Assembly (NCBI GenBank): GCA_963744145.1
Contig: CAVUSO010000001.1
Coordinates: 5,394,500-5,426,499, forward strand
Direction of reading: 5' to 3'
From: an uncultured cyanobacterium
GTDB taxonomy: Bacteria; Cyanobacteriota; Cyanobacteriia; Cyanobacteriales; CAWUOF01
Length of the DNA stretch: 32,000 nucleotides
The notes under the pieces were generated by a model that made no database searches, was not told the DNA's origin, and was given only the letters and a program-made list of their open reading frames with translations. The position numbers and the translations under genes were made by a program. Below, piece by piece: positions 8,827-28,991 of the stretch (position 1 is the first letter of the stretch; each line of letters begins with the position of its first letter).

Positions 8827-10209
8827 ATGAATATTGAAGATATTTTACAATGGGCTGACAATTTGATTGTTGAAAAAACGGGAGAAAATCTCACACCCAT
8901 ACATGAAGCAATACTAACGGGTGTTTGGCAAAGACAAAAATATTCTCAAATTGCTCAAGATTTCCATTGTAGTGAATCTCACATTAAAAAAGAAGCGGCT
9001 AAGTTATGGGAAAAGCTGGGTGAGGAATTAGGAGAAGATCTCAATAAATATAATTTTCTTTCCAAGTTAGAGAAAAAGCATAGGGTTTCGCAAGGATCTA
9101 ATTTTGGTTACTGCGTACAAATTAATGAGGGAAGTATTAATATTTGTGGTGAATGTTTACATTCTTTGAACAATTTACAAACGCGATCGCCCTCTCCCCC
9201 TGATTCTCCCCAAACCAAAAATGAATTTCCGCTCATCGATTTAACAGAAGCACCCGAATTAAATTGCCATGCCGATCGCACCTCAGAACTCTCCACCCTC
9301 AAACAATGGATTTTACAACACACTCGTCTAATTACTATCTACGGTTTAAGTGGAATTGGCAAAAGCGCGATCGCTCTCAAACTGATCGAACAAATCCAAA
9401 CTGAATTTGATTATATCATCTGGCAAAGTCTCAATAACACACCTACCCTTTTAACTCTCCAAACCAAACTCAAACAATTTTTTTCCCAATCCCAACCAAC
9501 TCCATTACCCACATTTATCGATTATTTTCGCACCTCACGCTGTTTAGTAATTCTTGATGATTTGCAAAACATCTTTAAATCTGGTGAATTAGCTGGTCAA
9601 TATTTAACGGACTATGAAGACTATGGCAAATTTTTTCAACAAATTGCCACATCATCTCACCCAAGTTGTTTAATTCTCCTCAGTTGGGAAAAACCCAGAG
9701 AAATTACTGCTTTAGAAGCAGTGAACAGTTCCACCCAAACTTTACAGCTCAAAGGTTTAGGGGAACAATCCACAGAAATTTTAGCGAGAAAAGGATTAAC
9801 AGATCAGGAAAAATGGTCAGAATTAATTACTCTTTATCAAGGTCATCCTTTCTGGCTAAATATCATCGCTGCCACAATTTGGGAATTATTTGATGGGAGT
9901 GTATCTCTATTTTTAGCCGATGGAACTGATTTATTTTTAGGTGATTTATCACCAATTTTAGCAGCTCAATTAGAGCGGTTATCAACATCAGAAAAACAGG
10001 CGCTGTACTGGTTAGCTAGTCAAATTGAATCTATCGATATTTCTCAAAAATTTGCTGATTGCAATTTATCCAAACCTGAATTATGGTCAGCTATCCAATC
10101 TTTATCCAGACGTAGTTTAGTTGAAAAAGTGTCAGGAGAAGGGCGATCGATGTTTCACGTTAATTCCGTATTCAAAGCCTATATTCAGTCCCAAATAAAT
10201 CTGATCTAA
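8827..10209 (+). CDS. STAND NTPase: N-terminal sigma70-r4/LuxR-like HTH + NB-ARC-like P-loop module, no C-terminal repeat sensor
   Basis: N-terminus LTPIHEAILTGVWQRQKYSQIAQDFHCSESHIKKEAAKLWEKLGEELG is the HTH type common on cyanobacterial NACHT/NB-ARC proteins. Walker A is YGLSGIGKS, Walker B is CLVILDD. LILLSWEKPRE, a GHPFWLNIIA (GLPL-like) motif and a winged-helix-like end are present. Confidence 0.85.
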   Translation: MNIEDILQWADNLIVEKTGENLTPIHEAILTGVWQRQKYSQIAQDFHCSESHIKKEAAKLWEKLGEELGEDLNKYNFLSKLEKKHRVSQGSNFGYCVQINEGSINICGECLHSLNNLQTRSPSPPDSPQTKNEFPLIDLTEAPELNCHADRTSELSTLKQWILQHTRLITIYGLSGIGKSAIALKLIEQIQTEFDYIIWQSLNNTPTLLTLQTKLKQFFSQSQPTPLPTFIDYFRTSRCLVILDDLQNIFKSGELAGQYLTDYEDYGKFFQQIATSSHPSCLILLSWEKPREITALEAVNSSTQTLQLKGLGEQSTEILARKGLTDQEKWSELITLYQGHPFWLNIIAATIWELFDGSVSLFLADGTDLFLGDLSPILAAQLERLSTSEKQALYWLASQIESIDISQKFADCNLSKPELWSAIQSLSRRSLVEKVSGEGRSMFHVNSVFKAYIQSQINLI

Positions 10210-22374: not shown

Positions 22375-22617
22375 TTATTGAGTGAAAGGCGATCGGGCAT
22401 GATCCATCTCGTCGATCGTTTTTGCTTCACGCCAAAATTTTAAACAACCTGCAACATCACTTAAGGTTGTTTCAGCAAAAGCTTTTTTTGGCTTGATTAA
22501 AATTCCATCACCAGTATCAATCAAAAGTAATTCCTGACCCGCTTCCCAACCGTAAGCTTTCCCCAGAGATGGAGGAATAATCATTTGTCCTTGGTCTGAT
22601 ACTCTGATTGTTTCCAT
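22375..22617 (-). CDS. AbrB/MazE/SpoVT-family antitoxin
   Basis: METIRVSDQGQMIIPPSLGKAYGWEAGQELLLIDTGDGILIKP is the swapped-hairpin SpoVT-AbrB signature. Confidence 0.8.
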   Translation of the reverse strand: METIRVSDQGQMIIPPSLGKAYGWEAGQELLLIDTGDGILIKPKKAFAETTLSDVAGCLKFWREAKTIDEMDHARSPFTQ

Positions 22618-23092: not shown

Positions 23093-23509
23093 ATGGACCC
23101 AATAACTGCTGGTGCGATCGCACTAATTACTCTGCTGGTCAACAAAACTTTTGAGAAAACGGGCGAAATAGTTGTAAGTAAAGCTTTTGACCAAGCAGGT
23201 AATGTTCTCAACTTGCTCAAACACAAATCTCCCGAAACTGCCAAAATGATTGCAGCAGCAGAAAATCCTGCTTTACCTCCTGGTGAAACGGTATATATGG
23301 ATGCTGTGGTAGAAAAGGTACAATCAGAAGCCCAACGTGACCCGGAAATTAAGGCAGAGTTGGAAAAATTAGGGGCTATGATCGAAGCAGCGAAAAAGGT
23401 AGATCCGCAATTGGCTAATACTATTAATGAAAATTGGCAGGGGATATGTTTTAAAAATGCTAATCCTACTATTTCTAATAATACTTTTAATTTTGGTGGC
23501 AAAGGATGA
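23093..23509 (+). CDS. Small helical effector-like protein with N-terminal hydrophobic helix and a C-terminal N/Q/G-rich motif shared with the downstream NLR
   Basis: N-terminus is MDPITAGAIALITLLV. The C-terminus, INENWQGICFKNANPTISNNTFNFGGKG, mirrors residues 1-28 of 23506-24831. The stop overlaps the next start (ATGA). Confidence 0.65.
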   Translation: MDPITAGAIALITLLVNKTFEKTGEIVVSKAFDQAGNVLNLLKHKSPETAKMIAAAENPALPPGETVYMDAVVEKVQSEAQRDPEIKAELEKLGAMIEAAKKVDPQLANTINENWQGICFKNANPTISNNTFNFGGKG

Positions 23510-24831
23510 ATATTGAAAAAAATTGGCAGGGAATAAATTTTGAAGATGCCAATCCTAGTATTACGGGTAATCAATTTATCTTTAATAATCAAACACCTTC
23601 AATTCCTGTTTATAATATTCCTTATACTGGTGTTCTTAATTTTGTAGGACGAAAAACGGAACTGCAAACACTGCAAGGGCAATTCCAGAAGTGTGATGGT
23701 GTAGTCATTTCTGCTGTGGCGGGGATGGGTGGTGTGGGCAAAACTGAATTGGCGATTAAATATGCACGCACCCATGAACAAGATTATCCTGGAGGGATTT
23801 GCTGGTTATCTGCTAGAGATGAGGGTTTAGCTAATAATATTTTACAATTTGCGCTGCTTGATCTGAAGTTGGAAGTGCCGCAAAAATTAGGCGAAAAACT
23901 GCTATCTCTTAAAGAACAGGTAAGCTGGTGTTGGCAGCATTGGCAACCATCGGCGGGGGCAGTTTTATTGGTGTTAGATGATGTTACTATTTGGAAAAGT
24001 TGTCGAGATTTTATTCCCAAAATTAATCGCTTTAAGATTTTAATTACTACCCGATTACGACATCTCGATAGCAATTTTCTTCAGTTATCGTTAGATGTAT
24101 TTTCACCGGATGAAGCTTTAGAATTTTTGAGGAATTTGCTTGGGGAAAAGCGAGTAGCACAGGAACTGGAAATTGCTAAAGATTTATGTAAATGGCTGGG
24201 GTATCTGCCTTTGGGGTTGGAATTGGTAGGACGATATTTGGTGGAAGATCCTGATTTGTCTTTAATGAAAATGTGGGAGAGGTTAAGACAAAAACGGTTG
24301 GAAGATGAGGCAGTTAATCCTGGAGATGAAGATTTACAGGATACAGAAATGACAGCAAAGAGAGGAGTAAAAACTGCGTTTGAGTTAAGCTGGCAAGAAT
24401 TGGATGTGATGACACAGCAATTAGGGGAATTGTTGAGTTTGTTTGCGCCAGCTATTATTCCTTGGAAATTATTAGTTGAATCTATAGCTAAATTGCTGAA
24501 TTGGAATGAGGCAGAGGTTGATAAAGGAAAAAAGGAACTTTATAAGCGATTTTTAATTAAGAGGTTAGCAGAAAGAGAGGCTTGTTATGAAATTCACCCT
24601 TTGATTAGGGAGTTTTTGAAAGCAAAGATAGATGAGTCTGAACTAGCACAAGATGTCAAACAGGCTTTTGTAGAAGTGATGGTAACAATGGCCAAGGAAA
24701 TTCCTGATTCAATCACGATAGATTTAATTGAGAAGTTAAAAGTTGTAATTCCTCATCTAGAAGAAGTAGCGGAAAACTTGATTGATATAGTTAGGGATGA
24801 AGATTTATATTGCGTTTTTTTAATGGGTTAG
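23506..24831 (+). CDS. NB-ARC STAND NTPase (bacterial NLR) with N-terminal short motif; frame lost before its TPR region
   Basis: P-loop GMGGVGKT, Walker B LLVLDDV, ILITTR and GYLPLGLELVGRYL are canonical NB-ARC motifs. The N-terminus is MNIEKNWQGINFEDANPSITGNQFIFNN. Confidence 0.9.
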   Translation: MNIEKNWQGINFEDANPSITGNQFIFNNQTPSIPVYNIPYTGVLNFVGRKTELQTLQGQFQKCDGVVISAVAGMGGVGKTELAIKYARTHEQDYPGGICWLSARDEGLANNILQFALLDLKLEVPQKLGEKLLSLKEQVSWCWQHWQPSAGAVLLVLDDVTIWKSCRDFIPKINRFKILITTRLRHLDSNFLQLSLDVFSPDEALEFLRNLLGEKRVAQELEIAKDLCKWLGYLPLGLELVGRYLVEDPDLSLMKMWERLRQKRLEDEAVNPGDEDLQDTEMTAKRGVKTAFELSWQELDVMTQQLGELLSLFAPAIIPWKLLVESIAKLLNWNEAEVDKGKKELYKRFLIKRLAEREACYEIHPLIREFLKAKIDESELAQDVKQAFVEVMVTMAKEIPDSITIDLIEKLKVVIPHLEEVAENLIDIVRDEDLYCVFLMG

Positions 24832-25121
24832 GTAGATTTTATCAAGGTCAAGGATTATATAATTTAGCAGAACCCTGGTTAGAACAGTCTTTAAGCAAAA
24901 TAAAAGCAAAGTTGGGCAACGACCATCCCGATGTGGCTGCCAGTTTGAACAATCTGGCATTACTCTACAACAACCAAGGGAGATACGCAGAAGCGGAACC
25001 GTTATTCCTTGACGCTTTAGTAATATGCGAAAATTGTTTAGGAAAAGATCATCCTGGTACTATTGATATTCGTCAAAATCTAGATATACTTAAAGAATAT
25101 CTCAGCCAGAGTAAATATTAG
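24810..25121 (+). CDS. TPR (TPR_10/12-type) C-terminal segment of the NB-ARC protein, separated by a frameshift in a T7 run
   Basis: GLGRFYQGQGLYNLAEPW...DHPDVAASLNNLALLYNNQGRYAEAEPLF...DHPGT is the TPR type always fused to NB-ARC. Only a TTG start is available. Adding one T to the run at 24815-24821 joins it to 23506-24831. Confidence 0.8.
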   Translation: MRFFNGLGRFYQGQGLYNLAEPWLEQSLSKIKAKLGNDHPDVAASLNNLALLYNNQGRYAEAEPLFLDALVICENCLGKDHPGTIDIRQNLDILKEYLSQSKY

Positions 25122-25220
25122 CGATCGCCTGATCTATCTGAAAATGTTTAAAATCATCTTAATAACTCTGTTTCGCGATCGCATATTCCTTACTCGCTAG
25201 GGAAACTGTCAAACAAGGAT

Positions 25221-25375
25221 TTACAGGCTGAAACCTTCGATATCTTGCTTATTGATTGCCAAAAATTCTGTAAAACCTTTATCCAGCATAGCCTCAACCG
25301 GAAAAATTAATCCCTCTCCTGTAATCAACTCAATCTCAAAAAATAATTCCCCTTTGCTGCCAAACCTCCCCTCAA
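25221..25375 (-). pseudogene. Truncated remnant of a clan AA aspartic protease gene (DTG degenerated to DKG)
   Basis: The minus-strand frame reads IEGRFGSKGELFFEIELITGEGLIFPVEAMLDKGFTEFLAINKQDIEGFSL*. This aligns by eye with residues 6-55 of 11996-12370. There is no canonical start, and it ends where the repeated segment begins. Confidence 0.4.
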
Positions 25376-25693
25376 TTATATTCTACCAGTTGCCCCTGAT
25401 TCATTCAAACAAAACATACAGTGGATAGTGTTTGGGTGTTTTTGCTGTGCCTTTTGGCTGGCTATTTCCTGATCAGAATCAATAAAATAATCCCCACTAT
25501 TGGGTTCAACTGCAATATACCAGCCATAGTGTTTCTCAATTAGTTCAGGAGATACTTGCTCAAAAATTTTTCGACAACGCTGATGAAAAGCTTCTCTCTC
25601 GGCTTTATGTCTAGCTTTTTCTGCGGGTGACCATTGAATTTCTGGAAAAATTCTGCCTCGACGGACAATTCTCTGGGGAGTAGATTGGGTCAT
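25376..25693 (-). CDS. Small partner protein of clan AA protease genes
   Basis: YGWYIAVEPNSGDYFIDSDQEIASQKAQQKHPNTIHCMF parallels IGKIVSINVETGEYEIGEDLVVTSRKLQAKQANAIIWAE in 11555-11995. It sits immediately upstream of the protease remnant. Confidence 0.55.
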   Translation of the reverse strand: MTQSTPQRIVRRGRIFPEIQWSPAEKARHKAEREAFHQRCRKIFEQVSPELIEKHYGWYIAVEPNSGDYFIDSDQEIASQKAQQKHPNTIHCMFCLNESGATGRI

Positions 25694-25767
25694 AATTCGC
25701 TCTAAATACTCATTTTTGTCTATTTGGGATTTCAGCCAAAAGATAGTCAGAAACTAATTCAAATTTG

Positions 25768-26000: not shown

Positions 26001-26321
26001 ATGATAGAAACAGAAAAAATTCTGCAAATTAGTCGGGCTATTGCTAGGGAATTTAAGCCAAACAAAATTATTTTATTTGGTTCATACGCTTATGGGAATC
26101 CTCAAGATGACTCAGATGTTGATTTATTAGTCATTTTGCCGTACAAGGGGAGTAATTTTCAGAAAAGTTGGGAAATTTTAAATAAAATTCAACCGAATTT
26201 TGCTCTAGATTTGTTAGTGCGAACTCCTGGAGATGTGGAGCAACGTCTCGCCTGGAATGATTTTTTTCTGCGGGAAATCATTGAAAAAGGAAAAGTGATT
26301 TATGAATCCGCTAACAGTTGA
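26001..26321 (+). CDS. Nucleotidyltransferase (MNT-type antitoxin of HEPN/MNT modules)
   Basis: LFGSYAYGNPQDDSDVDLLVI is the GSx10-11(D/E)xD minimal nucleotidyltransferase motif. It overlaps the HEPN ORF by 20 nt. Confidence 0.85.
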   Translation: MIETEKILQISRAIAREFKPNKIILFGSYAYGNPQDDSDVDLLVILPYKGSNFQKSWEILNKIQPNFALDLLVRTPGDVEQRLAWNDFFLREIIEKGKVIYESANS

Positions 26322-26484
26322 ATGGGTTGATAAAGCTGAGGGGGATTTTATTACAGCTTTGCGGGAGTTACGAGCCAGGAAATCTCCCAACTATGATGCG
26401 GCATCTTTTCACGCTCAACAGTGTGTTGAGAAATATTTGAAAGCGCATTTGCAAGAATCTGGAATTGCTTTCAGTAAAACATAG
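26302..26484 (+). CDS. HEPN-domain protein, C-terminally truncated (60 aa)
   Basis: FHAQQCVEKYLKAHL is the first HEPN helix pair. The ORF stops at ...AFSKT* before the RX4-6H motif region. An unrelated cassette follows. Confidence 0.7.
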   Translation: MNPLTVEWVDKAEGDFITALRELRARKSPNYDAASFHAQQCVEKYLKAHLQESGIAFSKT

Positions 26485-26547: not shown

Positions 26548-26832
26548 ATGCAAGCATATAAACTCAAAGGAAAAATAGATCCATCTGGTAATTTAGTGAT
26601 TACCGAAACCGTAAATTTACCCCCTGGAGATGTGGAAGTGATAGTCTGGCAAACTACTGAGATGTTTGATAACACTACAACTTCAGCAAGTGAACTACGA
26701 TCAGAAACACCAAAGAGAAAATCTAGGGTAAAAGCATTTGAGGGTTTATTTGAAAATGCTCCACCCATCCCACCAAACTTTGATCCAGACCTAGCTAAAT
26801 GGGAATATTTAAAAGAGAAACATAAGCTGTGA
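26548..26832 (+). CDS. VapB-like antitoxin
   Basis: MQAYKLKGKIDPSGNLVITETVNLPPGDVEVIVW is an N-terminus common to cyanobacterial PIN-associated antitoxins. The stop overlaps the GTG start of the PIN gene (GTGA). Confidence 0.6.
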   Translation: MQAYKLKGKIDPSGNLVITETVNLPPGDVEVIVWQTTEMFDNTTTSASELRSETPKRKSRVKAFEGLFENAPPIPPNFDPDLAKWEYLKEKHKL

Positions 26833-27248
26833 AAATCTTGCTAGATACTAATATAGTTGTTGATGATGCCCTGGAAAGACAGCCTTTTTGGGATGCAAGC
26901 GAGCAAGTTTTATCCCTGATTGAACAAAGACAAATTGAAAGTTATATTTCAGCTTCAACTTTTAGTGATTTGTATTACATCATCCGTAGAGCAAGAGGTA
27001 AAGATTGGACGTTTACTTATTTAAACCAGTTAGTTACCTTTTGCCGAATTGCTACTGTAAATCAGGCAGTAATTACAATGGCTATCACCGCAAATTTTAG
27101 TGATTTTGAAGATGCCATTCAATACGCCACTGCTGTATTAAATCAATTAGATGTGATTATTACCCGTAATCCTAAAGACTTCTCTGTTGTTCAACCGCGA
27201 ATTCTTACTCCTCAGCAATTAATTGAGGAATTAAAAAATTCTTGTTGA
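26829..27248 (+). CDS. vapC: PIN-domain ribonuclease toxin (VapC-like)
   Basis: ILLDTNIVVDD (first acidic residue), FEDAIQYATA and VIITRNPKDF are PIN signatures. 139 aa. Confidence 0.85.
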   Translation: MKILLDTNIVVDDALERQPFWDASEQVLSLIEQRQIESYISASTFSDLYYIIRRARGKDWTFTYLNQLVTFCRIATVNQAVITMAITANFSDFEDAIQYATAVLNQLDVIITRNPKDFSVVQPRILTPQQLIEELKNSC

Positions 27249-27337
27249 GTGATTTCAACAATGAAAAAATCGAATAATTTTCAAACTTTCAATCCCGCGA
27301 TCGCAACACCCAAGAAAATATATTTATTACTGTTATA

Positions 27338-27669
27338 TCTTGAGGCTTTAGTAATATGCGAAAGGGCGTTGCTGATTTACGGTATGAATAAAGAATTTGT
27401 AGGGGTGTATGGCTTTTGAGCCCAGGGCGCATAGCCATGCGCCCCTACAGAATTTTCATACCCTGATTAAGCAACGCCAGATCATCCTAATACTATTGTT
27501 ATTCGTGAAAATCTAAATATACTTAAAGAATCTCTCAGCCAGAGTAAAGATTAGCGATCGCCTGATCTATCTGAAAATGTTTAAAATCATCTTAATAACT
27601 CTCTTTCGCGATCGCATATTCCCTACTCGCTAGGGAAACTGTCAAATAAGGATTTACAGGCTGAAACCT
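27338..27669 (+). repeat. Second copy of the TPR-gene 3' end plus downstream flank (paralog of 25008-25236), interrupted by a hairpin element
   Basis: cttgaggctttagtaatatgcgaaag ... gatcatcctaatactatt ... agccagagtaaagattagcgatcgcctgatctatctgaaaatgtttaaaatcatcttaataactct... parallels 25008-25236 almost base for base, outside the insertion. Confidence 0.8.
27364..27479. mobile_element. MITE-like ~115-bp imperfect hairpin element inserted in the TPR remnant
   Basis: The ends GGCGTTGCT.../...AGCAACGCC and internal arms GGTATGAA..TGTAGGGG..ATGGC are reverse complements. The element is absent from the paralogous copy at 25030-25050. Confidence 0.5.
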
Positions 27670-27854
27670 ACTTATAATTCGCTCTAAATACTCATTTTTA
27701 TCTATGATTTTAGCTCGGAATTGACAAGCGATCGCGGTGCTGATGACACTAAATGCTACTCTAAATATAGACAGGATATTTAATATTAATAATTCTGGCG
27801 TGATGTTTAAATTACATTTTCGCTCATTAGGTTGATTGGGCAAGGGTGAAAATA

Positions 27855-28202
27855 TTACAAAGGTAAGTATTGAACTTGGTTGATTAAATCTTCAGGGTCA
27901 CTTACTTTCGCAAGTATTTCTAAGTCGCGCACACAATCGCCAACGGTTACATACTGTTGATGCGCGTAGATAACCCCACTAAAATTTATTCCCTCTTGCT
28001 GGTGATGATTTGCCATGACTAAAAAATCATCATCTTGGGTAAAAATAACCCGCTGAAGTTCCGTAGCACGATCAAGTAAAATCGGATCAGGTGTGCCAGT
28101 TCTGCCATCTTCTTGTACGGTGAGAACGTCTATCCCTCGCAATTTTAAACCATTTGTAATAGCTCGGCGGACATGTTCATCGATGTACAGAGCTAGGGTC
28201 AT
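27855..28202 (-). CDS. DUF5615 (Mut7-C/PIN-like) protein, putative toxin
   Basis: LYIDEHVRRAITNGLKLRGIDVLTVQEDG...VIFTQDDDF is typical of DUF5615. The start overlaps the DUF433 stop (ATGA at 28199-28202). Confidence 0.8.
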   Translation of the reverse strand: MTLALYIDEHVRRAITNGLKLRGIDVLTVQEDGRTGTPDPILLDRATELQRVIFTQDDDFLVMANHHQQEGINFSGVIYAHQQYVTVGDCVRDLEILAKVSDPEDLINQVQYLPL

Positions 28203-28516
28203 TTAATTAGCCCTTGGATGCGAAGTTTTTTAACTAAAGCAGATTCACCAGTTTGTTGACGTAACTTTTCAACCTGCTCGAATCGTTGCTGCATATCGGC
28301 ATCTAGTTCTTCTTTGTTATCCCAATAATAAGCTAAGGCAGAATAAATTTGACTCATGCTTAAATAGGGGTGTTGAAATTTAATTTCTTCGGGACTCCAG
28401 CCAAAACTAAGATGACCGGAAACTAATTCAATTACTTTCATCGTTGTTCCGGCGATGTAGGGAACTTTGTTTTCATCCAGTTCTATATATTTGTGTTGAG
28501 TAGCAGTCAAGTTCAT
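28199..28516 (-). CDS. DUF433 domain protein, putative antitoxin
   Basis: From the ATG at 28516: MNLTATQHKYIELDENKVPYIAGTTMKVIELV...SPEEIKFQHPYLSMSQIYSALAYY is the DUF433 signature. The longer track ORF, reaching 28699, runs through the promoter-like repeat. Confidence 0.8.
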   Translation of the reverse strand: MNLTATQHKYIELDENKVPYIAGTTMKVIELVSGHLSFGWSPEEIKFQHPYLSMSQIYSALAYYWDNKEELDADMQQRFEQVEKLRQQTGESALVKKLRIQGLIK

Positions 28517-28529
28517 CAAATTTGCCTTG

Positions 28530-28567
28530 TTGCTGATTACACTATAATTATAGCAGATTTTTGTGAT
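28530..28567 (-). promoter_or_regulatory. Shared promoter/operator-like element with palindrome CTATAATTATAG (copy 2)
   Basis: Identical to 25768-25805 and located 14-51 nt upstream of the DUF433 ATG. Confidence 0.35.
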
Positions 28568-28616
28568 TCGGCTGATAAAGATACGGTGAGCGATTGAATC
28601 CGGTTGATTAATTCTG

Positions 28617-28991
28617 TTAACCTTGCCCGTTGCCTTGGTTTCTCTGTTGAAGTTGTAAATATTCCCAGATGCGTCTAATCTCGGCTCGATCTTCTGCACT
28701 ACGTTCTGCTAATTCCGTATTGCGTTGTGCTAGTTCGCGATCGTGTTGTGCTAATTCGATATTGCGTTGTGCCAATTCCAACATAAATCCGGACAAGTTG
28801 GTAACAGTAGCCGTCAATTGCCGTTGGCTCTCGAAGAGAGAATCTACCTTATCAGTAATAACCGAAAATTCTCCCTGAAGTGCGAGGATTTCATCAAGCA
28901 AGATATTCGTTCTTTTCCCAAATTCGGTCTCGTCCTGACTAACTCGTTCTCTTAACGCTGTTATTTGTTCTTGTAGTGAATTGGTTTCCAT
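28617..28991 (-). CDS. Coiled-coil hypothetical protein
   Basis: 124 aa with heptad-like repeats (ELAQRNIELAQHDRELAQRNTELAERS). No recognisable catalytic motif. Confidence 0.5.
   Translation of the reverse strand: METNSLQEQITALRERVSQDETEFGKRTNILLDEILALQGEFSVITDKVDSLFESQRQLTATVTNLSGFMLELAQRNIELAQHDRELAQRNTELAERSAEDRAEIRRIWEYLQLQQRNQGNGQG

Follow-up and report, generated by a model that had tools for sequence, protein, structure and literature searches.

A probable BASS7-type Bell/NLR amyloid-signalling gene pair in an uncultured cyanobacterium

Gene pairs of the Bell/BASS–NLR type are the prokaryotic counterpart of HET-S/NWD2 signalling in fungi and RHIM signalling in animals, and they bear on the age of amyloid-templated immune cell death. 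For two of the bacterial motif families, BASS1 and BASS3, the formation of prions and fibrils has been demonstrated, and their NLR-side motifs convert the Bell-side motifs. The sole bacterial system of this kind proven in vivo is Bab/Agp (BASS11), in which phage T5 was used; here abortive infection is triggered by phage through amyloid signalling, and the substitution G11K in helix 1 abolishes activity (bioRxiv 10.1101/2024.11.07.622273). BASS7 is a further motif family, described from cyanobacteria, with PHIVNENWQGINFKNANPTISGNTFNF listed for Calothrix elsteri in Table S2 of Dyrka et al. (2020, bioRxiv 10.1101/2020.01.06.895854). Our literature search found no published experimental work on BASS7, nor on a Bell protein from any cyanobacterium.

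The locus described here lies in a 32-kb stretch of DNA, the whole of which we analysed and call the window. In our judgement it is probably a BASS7-type Bell/NLR amyloid-signalling gene pair, a member of the family defined by Dyrka et al. in 2020. An initial annotation had reported two overlapping open reading frames, and their positions, their sequences and the ATGA that joins them are as it described (ORF list and sequence). The features of the pair, all on the forward strand, are as follows.

23093–23509, +, Bell-domain effector gene, 138 aa; all-alpha domain of ~110 residues, then a C-terminal BASS7 tail (ORF list and homology)
23093–23140, +, N-terminal hydrophobic helix MDPITAGAIALITLLV; second residue acidic ('MEPIS'-type lead)
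23423–23494, +, Bell-side BASS7 motif INENWQGICFKNANPTISNNTFNF, residues 111–134; agrees with the BASS7 sequences in Table S2
23506–23509, +, ATGA, Bell stop overlapping NLR start (read from the sequence; same 4-bp overlap in related loci)
23506–24831, +, 5' part of the NLR gene, 441 aa with an early stop; BASS7 motif, NB-ARC and helical DUF7779-like region
23512–23583, +, NLR-side BASS7 motif IEKNWQGINFEDANPSITGNQFIF, residues 3–26 of the NLR
24811–24822, +, frameshift lesion; TGCGTTTTTTTA in the window, TGGCCTTTTA in two other assemblies (blastn of L001 and L002)
24819–25121, +, TPR sensor segment within a 103-aa ORF (24810–25121); two TPR_12 units and a C-terminal cap, in another frame in the window

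That the source is a cyanobacterium agrees with the 43 HIP1 sites in the window. By GlmM, the host lineage is without a close named relative: the nearest come nearly all from filamentous genera and are only 70–74% identical. The source contig is 7.63 Mb long.

Around the pair lies the toxin–antitoxin-rich island that had been claimed for it:

22375–22617, MazE-like antitoxin
26001–26484, MNT/HEPN
26548–27248, antitoxin plus PIN
27855–28699, DUF5615/DUF433

The neighbourhood has also been decaying and rearranging, with a HEPN truncated to 60 aa, the 3' remnant of a second NLR carrying a MITE-like insertion, and a segmental duplication. No PADLOC model picks out the Bell or the NLR protein as a defence component, and promoter and terminator scans of the window were uninformative, with counts no higher than in shuffled sequence.

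The small protein is the first of the two partners. It has 67 homologues, all small (~125–165 aa) and all cyanobacterial, and three published BASS7 Bell proteins are among its matches: OUL32057.1 (our P0067; phmmer E 5.7e-13), listed under BASS7 in Table S2 of Dyrka et al.; OYE01691.1 (locus L008; tblastn, 47% identity, E 1e-28); and PAX60321.1 (locus L049; tblastn E 5e-16). The 138-aa protein is therefore a Bell-domain protein by homology. Its first helix, correctly noted earlier as hydrophobic, contains the most hydrophobic 15-residue segment of the protein (mean Kyte–Doolittle 1.84) and fits the N-terminal signature described for Bell, Hell and Bab proteins; the family consensus begins MEPLTAGAIAL, with P3, T5, G7, A8, I9 and A10 each at least 90% conserved. 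The Bell family as a whole comprises 415 representative clusters, in which the MEPxT helix domain is common and the N/Q/G-rich tails are many and different. As judged from the sequences, this is the pattern expected of a modular effector combined with a signalling peptide.

Two AlphaFold2 models, built on alignments of 23 and 66 sequences (pLDDT 65.7 and 67.5), predict an all-alpha domain of five to six helices (3–16, 26–45, 47–55, 69–82, 84–103 and 105–115) followed by a disordered C-terminal tail, with pLDDT below 50 across the motif in both. Foldseek returned no significant match to the PDB with either model. Its best matches, bundles of the Bcl-2/Mcl-1 family (E 0.3–2, TM 0.2–0.33), were treated as noise, and a profile search of PDB sequences with the Bell protein gave designed coiled coils only, at E 0.3 or worse. 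The modelled domain could be akin to the structures of Bab, HeLo or MLKL, a likeness on which these fold and sequence searches speak neither for nor against. No Bell-domain family was assigned to the protein in Pfam (which holds no Bell model), PADLOC or NCBIfam; weak Pfam matches to IPPT and CO_dh, under their cut-offs, were disregarded.

What ties the two genes together is the motif at the facing ends of their products, first seen as a shared terminal stretch. The two copies are identical at 14 of 24 residues and 53 of 72 nucleotides, and their local BLOSUM62 score is 80. When the Bell tail was shuffled 20,000 times with its composition preserved, the scores came to 22.9 ± 4.9 and never rose above 55. 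Aligned in register, the DNA copies are offset by 89 nt (from 23423 to 23512) rather than by the 84 nt given initially, which puts them in different reading frames. There is one copy per protein, and a regex scan found none elsewhere in the window. One could suppose that the similarity is a chance resemblance of low-complexity sequence, or an internal tandem duplication within what is really one fused ORF, and the motif, being rich in N and in AT, would suit such a reading; nothing further does. None of the shuffles reached the observed score, the copies differ in frame, and all 19 paired loci retain a stop codon behind the Bell motif, so we consider this idea refuted, with next to no chance of being right.

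Nor is the motif a new family, as had been suggested. The Bell-side copy matches the motif of PAX60321.1 from C. elsteri, VNENWQGINFKNANPTISGNTFNF, at 21 of 24 positions (manual count), and it conforms to the BASS7 consensus drawn from the Table S2 entries, [IV]-N-E-N-W-Q-G-I-N-[FI]-K-x-x-x-x-x-I-x-x-N-T-F-N-F; the NLR-side copy retains NWQGI, F, ANP, I, N, F and F. By sequence, then, the shared motif is BASS7, published in 2020. The NLR-side copy is nearer to Bell motifs of an 'FKNANP' subclass (14–16 of 24 identities) than to those of an 'IKGG' subclass (9–11 of 24). Few pairs in the family are less alike than that of the window, at 14 of 24, and it has unusual residues on the Bell side (Cys at motif position 9) and on the NLR side (Lys3, Glu11, Gln21 and Ile23).

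Beyond the window, the same arrangement recurs. We found 19 loci, the window included, in which the motif stands at the C-terminus of a Bell protein and at the N-terminus of the product of the next gene. The locus search was built on the closer homologue set, A2, and the loci are therefore biased towards bearers of BASS7. Whether related genomes carry a single fused ORF, a point raised by the initial annotation, was examined in all of them: the genes are always separate, and none is fused. An ATGA overlap occurs in nine of the 19 (the window, L003–L006, L008, L024, L028 and L029), and in the pair described here it suggests translational coupling. Partners checked by Pfam have NB-ARC plus TPR in seven cases out of ten and NB-ARC only in two; those of L003 and L005 gave no match. 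One partner is a 258-aa protein that is not an NLR. Homology to published members, together with an architecture conserved across the 19 loci, places the pair in the Bell/BASS–NLR class, as first proposed.

Covariation of the two copies, the other expectation raised at the outset, is partly borne out. Within pairs the motifs share 15.6 of 24 identities versus 14.2 of 24 across pairs (permutation p about 1e-4), and the subclasses 'FKNANP' and 'IKGG', as well as a proline at motif position 20, track between Bell and NLR partners; the sequence effect is modest and is confounded by the co-inheritance of adjacent genes. In Nostoc some 25 loci have a Bell–BASS7 gene with no partner inside 5 kb.

How such a motif might work is a separate matter. 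Its composition, rich in N, I, F and G, is in line with the published bias of amyloid-signalling motifs. Residues 109–133 of the Bell tail also match TIGR03804, the parallel beta-helix repeat, at 20.7 bits (cut-off 19.45), and five other BASS7 motifs score 13.6–17.8 bits; the Pfam models Beta_helix and NosD gave no match. We rejected membership in the parallel beta-helix repeat proteins (TIGR03804/PbH1): there is one rung-length match and there are no tandem rungs, which makes this a resemblance. From it one may build the speculative idea, unlikely in our estimation, that BASS7 is one rung that has come loose from a right-handed parallel beta-helix of the PbH1/TIGR03804 type; the activated NLR oligomer would nucleate a beta-solenoid, and Bell tails would add to it one rung at a time. 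If this were true, a globular beta-helix repeat would be the origin of BASS7 or the form on which it exactly converged, and an experimentally unstudied BASS family would have a concrete, testable structural model. A minor variant noted beside this reading has a split receptor made by –1 frameshifting at a U UUU UUA created by the lesion, to which we return below.

The same resemblance can be read another way. The shared motif might be a conventional docking interface that is not amyloid, with stoichiometric pairing (for example of complementary beta-helix rungs) tethering or inhibiting the effector until the NLR is activated, and no self-propagating templating. A motif that looks like one rung of a globular beta-helix would suit docking, as would the near-stoichiometric co-production suggested by ATGA-coupled translation, and the literature we found reports no fibril formation by BASS7. 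Against these points, every motif tested in this genomic configuration (BASS1, BASS3, BASS11, HRAM, PP and sigma) gave amyloid or prions, the partnerless Nostoc genes argue against an obligatory 1:1 complex, and the composition fits amyloid signalling. We regard docking as improbable.

The second partner is an NLR. Pfam confirms its NB-ARC domain (PF00931, E 7e-15, residues 50–267), and the four motifs quoted for it, GMGGVGKT, LLVLDDV, ILITTR and GYLPLGLEL, are all in the translation; by count from the translation the first of them, the Walker A, is residues 73–80 (nt 23722–23745). A DUF7779 match (Pfam E 3e-5) accompanies it. TPRs had been placed after the NB-ARC, and TPRs exist (TPR_12 E 4e-28, TPR_10 E 8e-25); what had been overlooked is a frameshift. 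In the window the NB-ARC ORF meets a premature stop at 24829–24831, and the NB-ARC part (441 aa) and the TPR part (103 aa) are in different frames, so that a full NLR in one polypeptide is absent as read. The intact form is represented by the 537-aa protein P0188 of locus L001, residues 438–537 of which map to 24819–25121 at 100% identity (tblastn). Its TPR array is minimal, with two units, and is the shortest TPR sensor among the relatives examined; this economy and the ATGA coupling make the pair a compact candidate for reconstitution.

Two independent short-read assemblies, L001 and L002, share 99.8% identity with the window across ~1.9–2.3 kb and have the intact 537-aa NB-ARC and TPR gene, and across the lesion point homologues keep DEDL[IY]WPFxGLGRFY, relative to which the window junction is derived. 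It follows that the NLR copy in the window is either inactivated, as a pseudogene, or mis-assembled; the junction in the source strain would read TGGCCTTTT if the error is in the assembly (giving the intact 537-aa NLR) and TGCGTTTTTTT if the pseudogene is real. A methylation-linked error at GGCC was considered and set aside, since the other GGCC site in the NLR gene (24690) is intact and nothing systematic is shown; GGCC sites are scarcer in the window than expected (18 against ~48).

If the frameshift is real, the pair in this genome could be a decaying, non-functional relic, in which the NB-ARC has been parted from its TPR sensor, leaving a module that has stopped signalling or that persists only through being inactive. 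This we take as a serious possibility, a little short of even. The stop and the displaced TPR frame fit it, as do the derived junction, the decay in the surroundings (the short HEPN, the NLR remnant with its insertion, the segmental duplication) and the interrupted NLR partners at L038 and L043. Pulling the other way are the two short-read assemblies with intact ORFs, one of which, L002, differs from the window at the lesion alone, as would be seen had a long-read genome been mis-assembled, or its bases miscalled, at this spot; nor do the Bell gene and the remaining NLR sequence carry further lesions. The relic reading concerns the state of the window copy and not the family, and it is compatible with the assignment to BASS7.

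A third reading of the same junction is that the split NLR is expressed by programmed –1 ribosomal frameshifting at U UUU UUA (24816–24822), yielding mainly an NB-ARC that lacks the TPRs, along with small amounts of full-length receptor containing the trans-frame peptide ...DLYCVFLNGLGR... The frame-0 codons GUU UUU UUA do form a canonical X XXY YYZ heptamer, and the –1 frame runs on through AAU GGG UUA GGU (NGLG), the start of the TPR region. Neither the intact allele nor any homologue has the heptamer, WPF being read in frame there, and folding of the 78 nt downstream is no stronger than that of shuffled controls (z = –1.3), which gives no support to a stimulatory RNA structure. Mutation or assembly error is the simplest reading, and programmed frameshifting seems very improbable to us.

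For an intact BASS7 pair, amyloid templating, membrane attack and defence may be proposed by analogy with HET-S/NWD2, BASS1, BASS3 and Bab/Agp (BASS11). The TPR array would keep the NLR off until it bound a trigger, probably derived from phage or from damage. The NB-ARC would then oligomerise in a nucleotide-dependent manner and cluster the N-terminal BASS7 peptides, which would take up a cross-beta, probably beta-solenoid-like, fold. This nucleus would act as template for the Bell protein's disordered BASS7 tail, which would adopt that fold too; refolding of the tail would free helix 1 from the helical bundle, and helix 1 would enter the membrane and kill the cell, resulting in abortive infection or altruistic death within the filament.

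The locus is a further example of a family already described, not a new type, and it opens no new question by itself. The survey of the family, with its 19 pairs, two tracking motif subclasses, orphan effectors and 258-aa non-NLR partner, could help in planning initial experimental work on BASS7. In view of the frameshift, gene calls from this assembly should not be accepted unquestioned.

Set beside HET-S/NWD2 of Podospora anserina, the window pair, known from sequence, would follow the same logic: a small pore-forming effector with a C-terminal amyloid motif, an adjacent NLR with an N-terminal copy, and templated activation. The two have no homology of motif or domain sequence, and Pfam gave no HeLo or HeLo-like match. 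HET-S has two HRAM pseudo-repeats whereas the Bell protein has one motif copy, and NWD2 is a NACHT/WD receptor whereas the bacterial one is NB-ARC/TPR. The window locus is an analogue of HET-S/NWD2, not a member.

Bab/Agp, from E. coli ECOR25, is like the window pair in its adjacent genes with a common terminal amyloid motif, its small helical effector, the conserved hydrophobic 'MEPIS'-type helix 1 and its defence- or toxin–antitoxin-rich setting. It differs in its partner, TPR-GreA/B-C-PIN rather than an NB-ARC/TPR NLR, in its 'Babybell' domain of ~80 aa rather than a helical domain of ~110 aa, and in its motif, BASS11 rather than BASS7. The fold and PDB sequence searches with the window Bell protein gave no match to Bab, leaving the helix-1 signature alone in common, and we rejected membership of the Bab/Agp system on domain size and partner architecture. 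BASS1 (Streptomyces coelicolor CAB66307.1/CAB66306.1) and the RHIM-like BASS3 have the same Bell/NLR architecture and a short ORF overlap; their hosts are actinobacteria, and the motifs, ASGSARIYQAGRDQHITER for BASS1, are unrelated in sequence to BASS7. Fibril and prion data exist for these two motifs, whereas the present pair is known as sequence.

Closest of all is the BASS7 pair PAX60321.1/PAX60320.1 of the Nostocales (Dyrka et al. 2020), from C. elsteri CCALA 953 (Calothrix/Brunnivagina). It has the same motif, both pairs falling in the 'NWQGINFKNANPTISxNTFNF' subclass, a homologous Bell domain, an NB-ARC and TPR partner, collinear adjacent genes and a cyanobacterial host. The NLR of the window is frameshifted in its assembly, unlike that of C. 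elsteri, and the genes overlap by ATGA where those of C. elsteri are 170 bp apart. The window pair is also the smaller in both its parts: its Bell protein lacks the linker of ~17–20 residues before the motif (138 aa versus ~155 aa in the published BASS7 relative), and the NLR of its type, with two TPR units, is 537 aa in intact form, compared with 600–1090 aa in the BASS7 pairs of the Nostocales.

The Bell protein and the nucleotide-binding receptor (NLR) that adjoins it are encoded as the initial annotation had described, their reading frames joined by an ATGA overlap:

23093-23509, + strand: Bell gene, a 138-aa ORF
23506-24831, + strand: 5' ORF of the NLR gene, 441 aa, overlapping the Bell ORF by the ATGA

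The motif claimed for the two termini, common to the 28 C-terminal residues of the Bell protein and the 28 N-terminal residues of the NLR, is also there. Aligned in register, residues 111-134 of the Bell protein (INENWQGICFKNANPTISNNTFNF) and 3-26 of the NLR (IEKNWQGINFEDANPSITGNQFIF) are identical at 14 of 24 positions, and their BLOSUM62 local score is 80, against a mean of 22.9 (sd 4.9, maximum 55) when the Bell tail is shuffled 20,000 times. The DNA of the copies agrees at 53 of 72 nt, with an in-register offset of 89 nt (23423 versus 23512) rather than the 84 nt first proposed, which puts the copies out of frame with each other. Pfam assigns NB-ARC (E 7e-15) to the NLR ORF, along with helical sequence resembling DUF7779; the NB-ARC had been predicted correctly, whereas the TPRs expected after it in the same ORF sit in another frame of the window.

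The locus had been assigned to the Bell/BASS-NLR class, possibly with a motif family of its own. The class was right in kind, but the novelty is not borne out: the motif is already published as bass_07 (BASS7) by Dyrka et al. 2020 (bioRxiv 10.1101/2020.01.06.895854), whose Table S2 gives Calothrix elsteri PAX60321.1/PAX60320.1 (PHIVNENWQGINFKNANPTISGNTFNF / NENWQGINFKDSNPIIQGNNFNF) and, as further hosts, Calothrix PCC 6303, Leptolyngbya frigida and Nostoc sp. 106C. The homology of the window's Bell protein to Bell proteins listed under BASS7 spans its entire length. One of them, OUL32057.1 of Nostoc 106C, corresponds to its homologue P0067 (E 5.7e-13), and the genome scan also picked up the OYE01691.1 locus (L008, E 1e-28) and the PAX60321.1 locus (L049, E 5e-16). 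We are nearly certain that the locus belongs to the Bell/BASS7-NLR family, of which it is a further example.

A Pfam search of the Bell protein returned no family, a profile search of PDB sequences no match, and PADLOC recognised neither it nor the NLR. Position 2 is acidic and precedes the protein's most hydrophobic segment, MDPITAGAIALITLLV (mean Kyte-Doolittle 1.84); the N-terminal family consensus is MEPLTAGAIAL. This acidic-then-hydrophobic signature is named the 'MEPIS' region, and shown to be required for killing, in the 2024 paper on Bab/Agp, the BASS11 abortive-infection system (bioRxiv 10.1101/2024.11.07.622273). In the AF2 models five to six helices make up an all-alpha domain, and a tail with pLDDT below 50 follows; Foldseek searches of the PDB with both models gave nothing significant, the best being Bcl-2-family bundles at a TM of 0.33 or less. 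In the closest homologues, P0002-P0008, a linker of ~17-20 residues (...AIQALKEAVISQSPNII...) joins the final helix to the BASS7 motif; the window's protein lacks this linker. Motif position 9, an Asn in all 18 other pairs, is a Cys in the window's Bell protein. Its tail matches NCBIfam TIGR03804, a parallel beta-helix repeat, at 20.7 bits (curated cut-off 19.45), and matches of 13.6-17.8 bits at identical profile positions were obtained for five other BASS7 motifs (two NLR-side); the window's NLR-side motif gave no match to this profile. The matches would fit a beta-solenoid-like rung, and convergence of composition would explain the match equally well.

Searching 1.84 billion representative proteins with a Bell profile yielded 415 clusters, 206 of them with an E-value no worse than 1e-10. 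Lengths are almost always 120-170 aa. The clusters have one N-terminal domain in common and many different N/Q/G-rich tails, among them BASS7, KLAEKIGxVxQGG...NxTFNF and AETIGINNQNISGGEVYQTFGQGG. One domain with varied tails is what the effector-plus-signalling-peptide model predicts. Of the 51 genomic loci and the window, 19 have BASS7 at the end of the Bell protein and again at the start of the following gene's product; the Bell ORF stops directly after the motif in every one, and nine, the window counted, have the ATGA overlap. The initial annotation had held that a fused ORF in relatives would speak against the pair; the 19 paired loci contain no fusion, so that objection falls away. Motif identity is 15.6/24 within pairs versus 14.2/24 across them (permutation p about 1e-4), or 15.3 versus 14.0 of 24 with near-duplicates removed (p 1.4e-4). 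Partners correspond in subclass, 'FKNANP' or 'IKGG', and in whether motif position 20 is a Pro. Both results are consistent with co-evolution, although the test is weak because adjacent genes are co-inherited. At 14/24, the window's pair ranks among the least similar in the family.

Ten partners were checked, of which seven have NB-ARC and TPRs and two NB-ARC only; Pfam gave no NB-ARC or other match for those of loci L003 and L005. ORFs of ~258 aa that begin with the BASS7 motif (MTQENLQGINSKDSNVTIKDNIFNF in L003) follow the Bell-BASS7 gene, with an ATGA overlap, in Brasilonema sp. CT11 (L003:5465-6241), B. angustatum (L004:5465-6244) and Scytonema sp. PCC 10023 (L005:5492-6268). About 25 loci from Nostoc spp. 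and Dendronalium (L009-L023, L025-L027, L030, L031, L033, L035) encode a 125-aa Bell protein ending IIENWQGINIKGGTNTISGNT[LF]NF, with no BASS7-headed ORF in the 5 kb either side. These are orphan effectors, and the receptor that serves them is presumably encoded elsewhere.

The window's receptor is split. Its NB-ARC ORF stops at 24831, and a TPR_12/TPR_10 segment (24810-25121) occupies another frame. Two short-read assemblies, L001 (ERR11571142) and L002 (SRR27973230), each 99.8% identical to the window's DNA, encode an identical Bell protein and read TATTGGCCTTTTAATGGG at the break, where the window has TATTGCGTTTTTTTAATGGG; L001 therefore encodes an uninterrupted 537-aa NB-ARC+TPR protein, P0188. 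Since DEDL[IY]WPFxGLGRFY, which spans the junction, is kept in homologues as in P0188, the window form is derived. The heptamer U UUU UUA that the lesion yields in frame 0 (24816-24822) is a perfect slippery site, and a -1 slip there would lead into the TPR frame, but the intact allele has no such site and the RNA downstream is unremarkable (z = -1.3). We consider it very improbable that the split NLR is made by programmed -1 frameshifting; the heptamer is probably coincidental. Because L002 differs from the window solely at the break, the comparison favours a local assembly error, with a real mutation as the alternative. A systematic methylation artefact as the cause is not shown, since the gene's other GGCC site is intact. 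Whether the window's copy of the pair is functional we rate an even bet. GGCC is ~2.6-fold rarer than expected in the window (18 observed, ~48 expected; CCGG 47). The intact P0188 has two TPR_12 units only, with a normal C-terminal cap, HPxTxxxRxNL; short forms occur elsewhere (P0089, for example, at 531 aa), and most relatives have 3-14 units.

The surroundings are as rich in toxin-antitoxin genes as had been claimed: a MazE-like antitoxin, an MNT nucleotidyltransferase with truncated HEPN, an antitoxin with PIN toxin and a DUF5615/DUF433 pair. The HEPN partner (26302-26484, 60 aa) of the MNT gene (26001-26321) covers profile positions 3-53 of 117 and appears truncated. Some 2.4 kb beyond the NLR's TPR C-terminus lies a decayed second copy of it and its downstream DNA (27329-27705; counterparts 24998-25236 and 25692-25723; repeats of 35 nt at 89%, 191 nt at 95% and 32 nt at 97%), with the MNT/HEPN and antitoxin/PIN cassettes between the two. 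The second copy points to a paralogous NLR that has been lost, or to duplication of a segment around the toxin-antitoxin genes. Within the TPR remnant, 14 nt have given way to a 115-bp element (27364-27478) that carries terminal inverted repeats of 24 nt (GGCGTTGCTGATTTACGGTATGAA ... TTCATACCCTGATTAAGCAACGCC) and looks like a MITE insertion. A second STAND-like ATPase (8827-10209, 460 aa) has an N-terminal domain of ~145 aa, a weak NB-ARC match (E 5e-6, ~residues 150-250) and no repeat domain. The wider window is ordinary cyanobacterial chromosome, with MutL, GlmM, GUN4, M61 peptidase, PmbA/TldD and Uma2 genes interspersed; six Uma2-family ORFs are scattered through it (including 6669, 10269, 10974, 13794 and 29187; seven matches in all). 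No named relative exceeds 74% identity to its GlmM, and nearly all of these named relatives belong to filamentous genera. The contig measures 7.63 Mb, and 43 copies of HIP1 (GCGATCGC) in 32 kb mark the source as a cyanobacterium.

Our analysis demonstrates the architecture and homology, the sharing of the motif and its retention in other genomes, and the tail's disorder and composition; a literature search found no experiments on BASS7 or any cyanobacterial Bell protein. By analogy, we think it rather likely that the pair uses amyloid templating to pass a signal to a membrane-active effector. The TPR array would hold the NLR off until a trigger is bound, whereupon the NB-ARC would oligomerise and the clustered N-terminal BASS7 peptides would form a cross-beta nucleus. 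This nucleus would template the Bell tail, setting helix 1 free to attack the membrane, and the cell would die, in abortive infection or altruistically within a filament. These steps are drawn from the fungal HET-S/NWD2 pair, from BASS1 and BASS3, for which prions, fibrils and NLR-to-Bell conversion in Podospora have been shown, and from Bab/Agp BASS11. In that last system (bioRxiv 10.1101/2024.11.07.622273) T5 triggers an amyloid-dependent abortive infection, in which Bab relocalises to the cell periphery and membranes are altered; the ~258-aa, putatively non-NLR BASS7 partner of L003 and L005 is reminiscent of Agp, the non-NLR partner of Bab.
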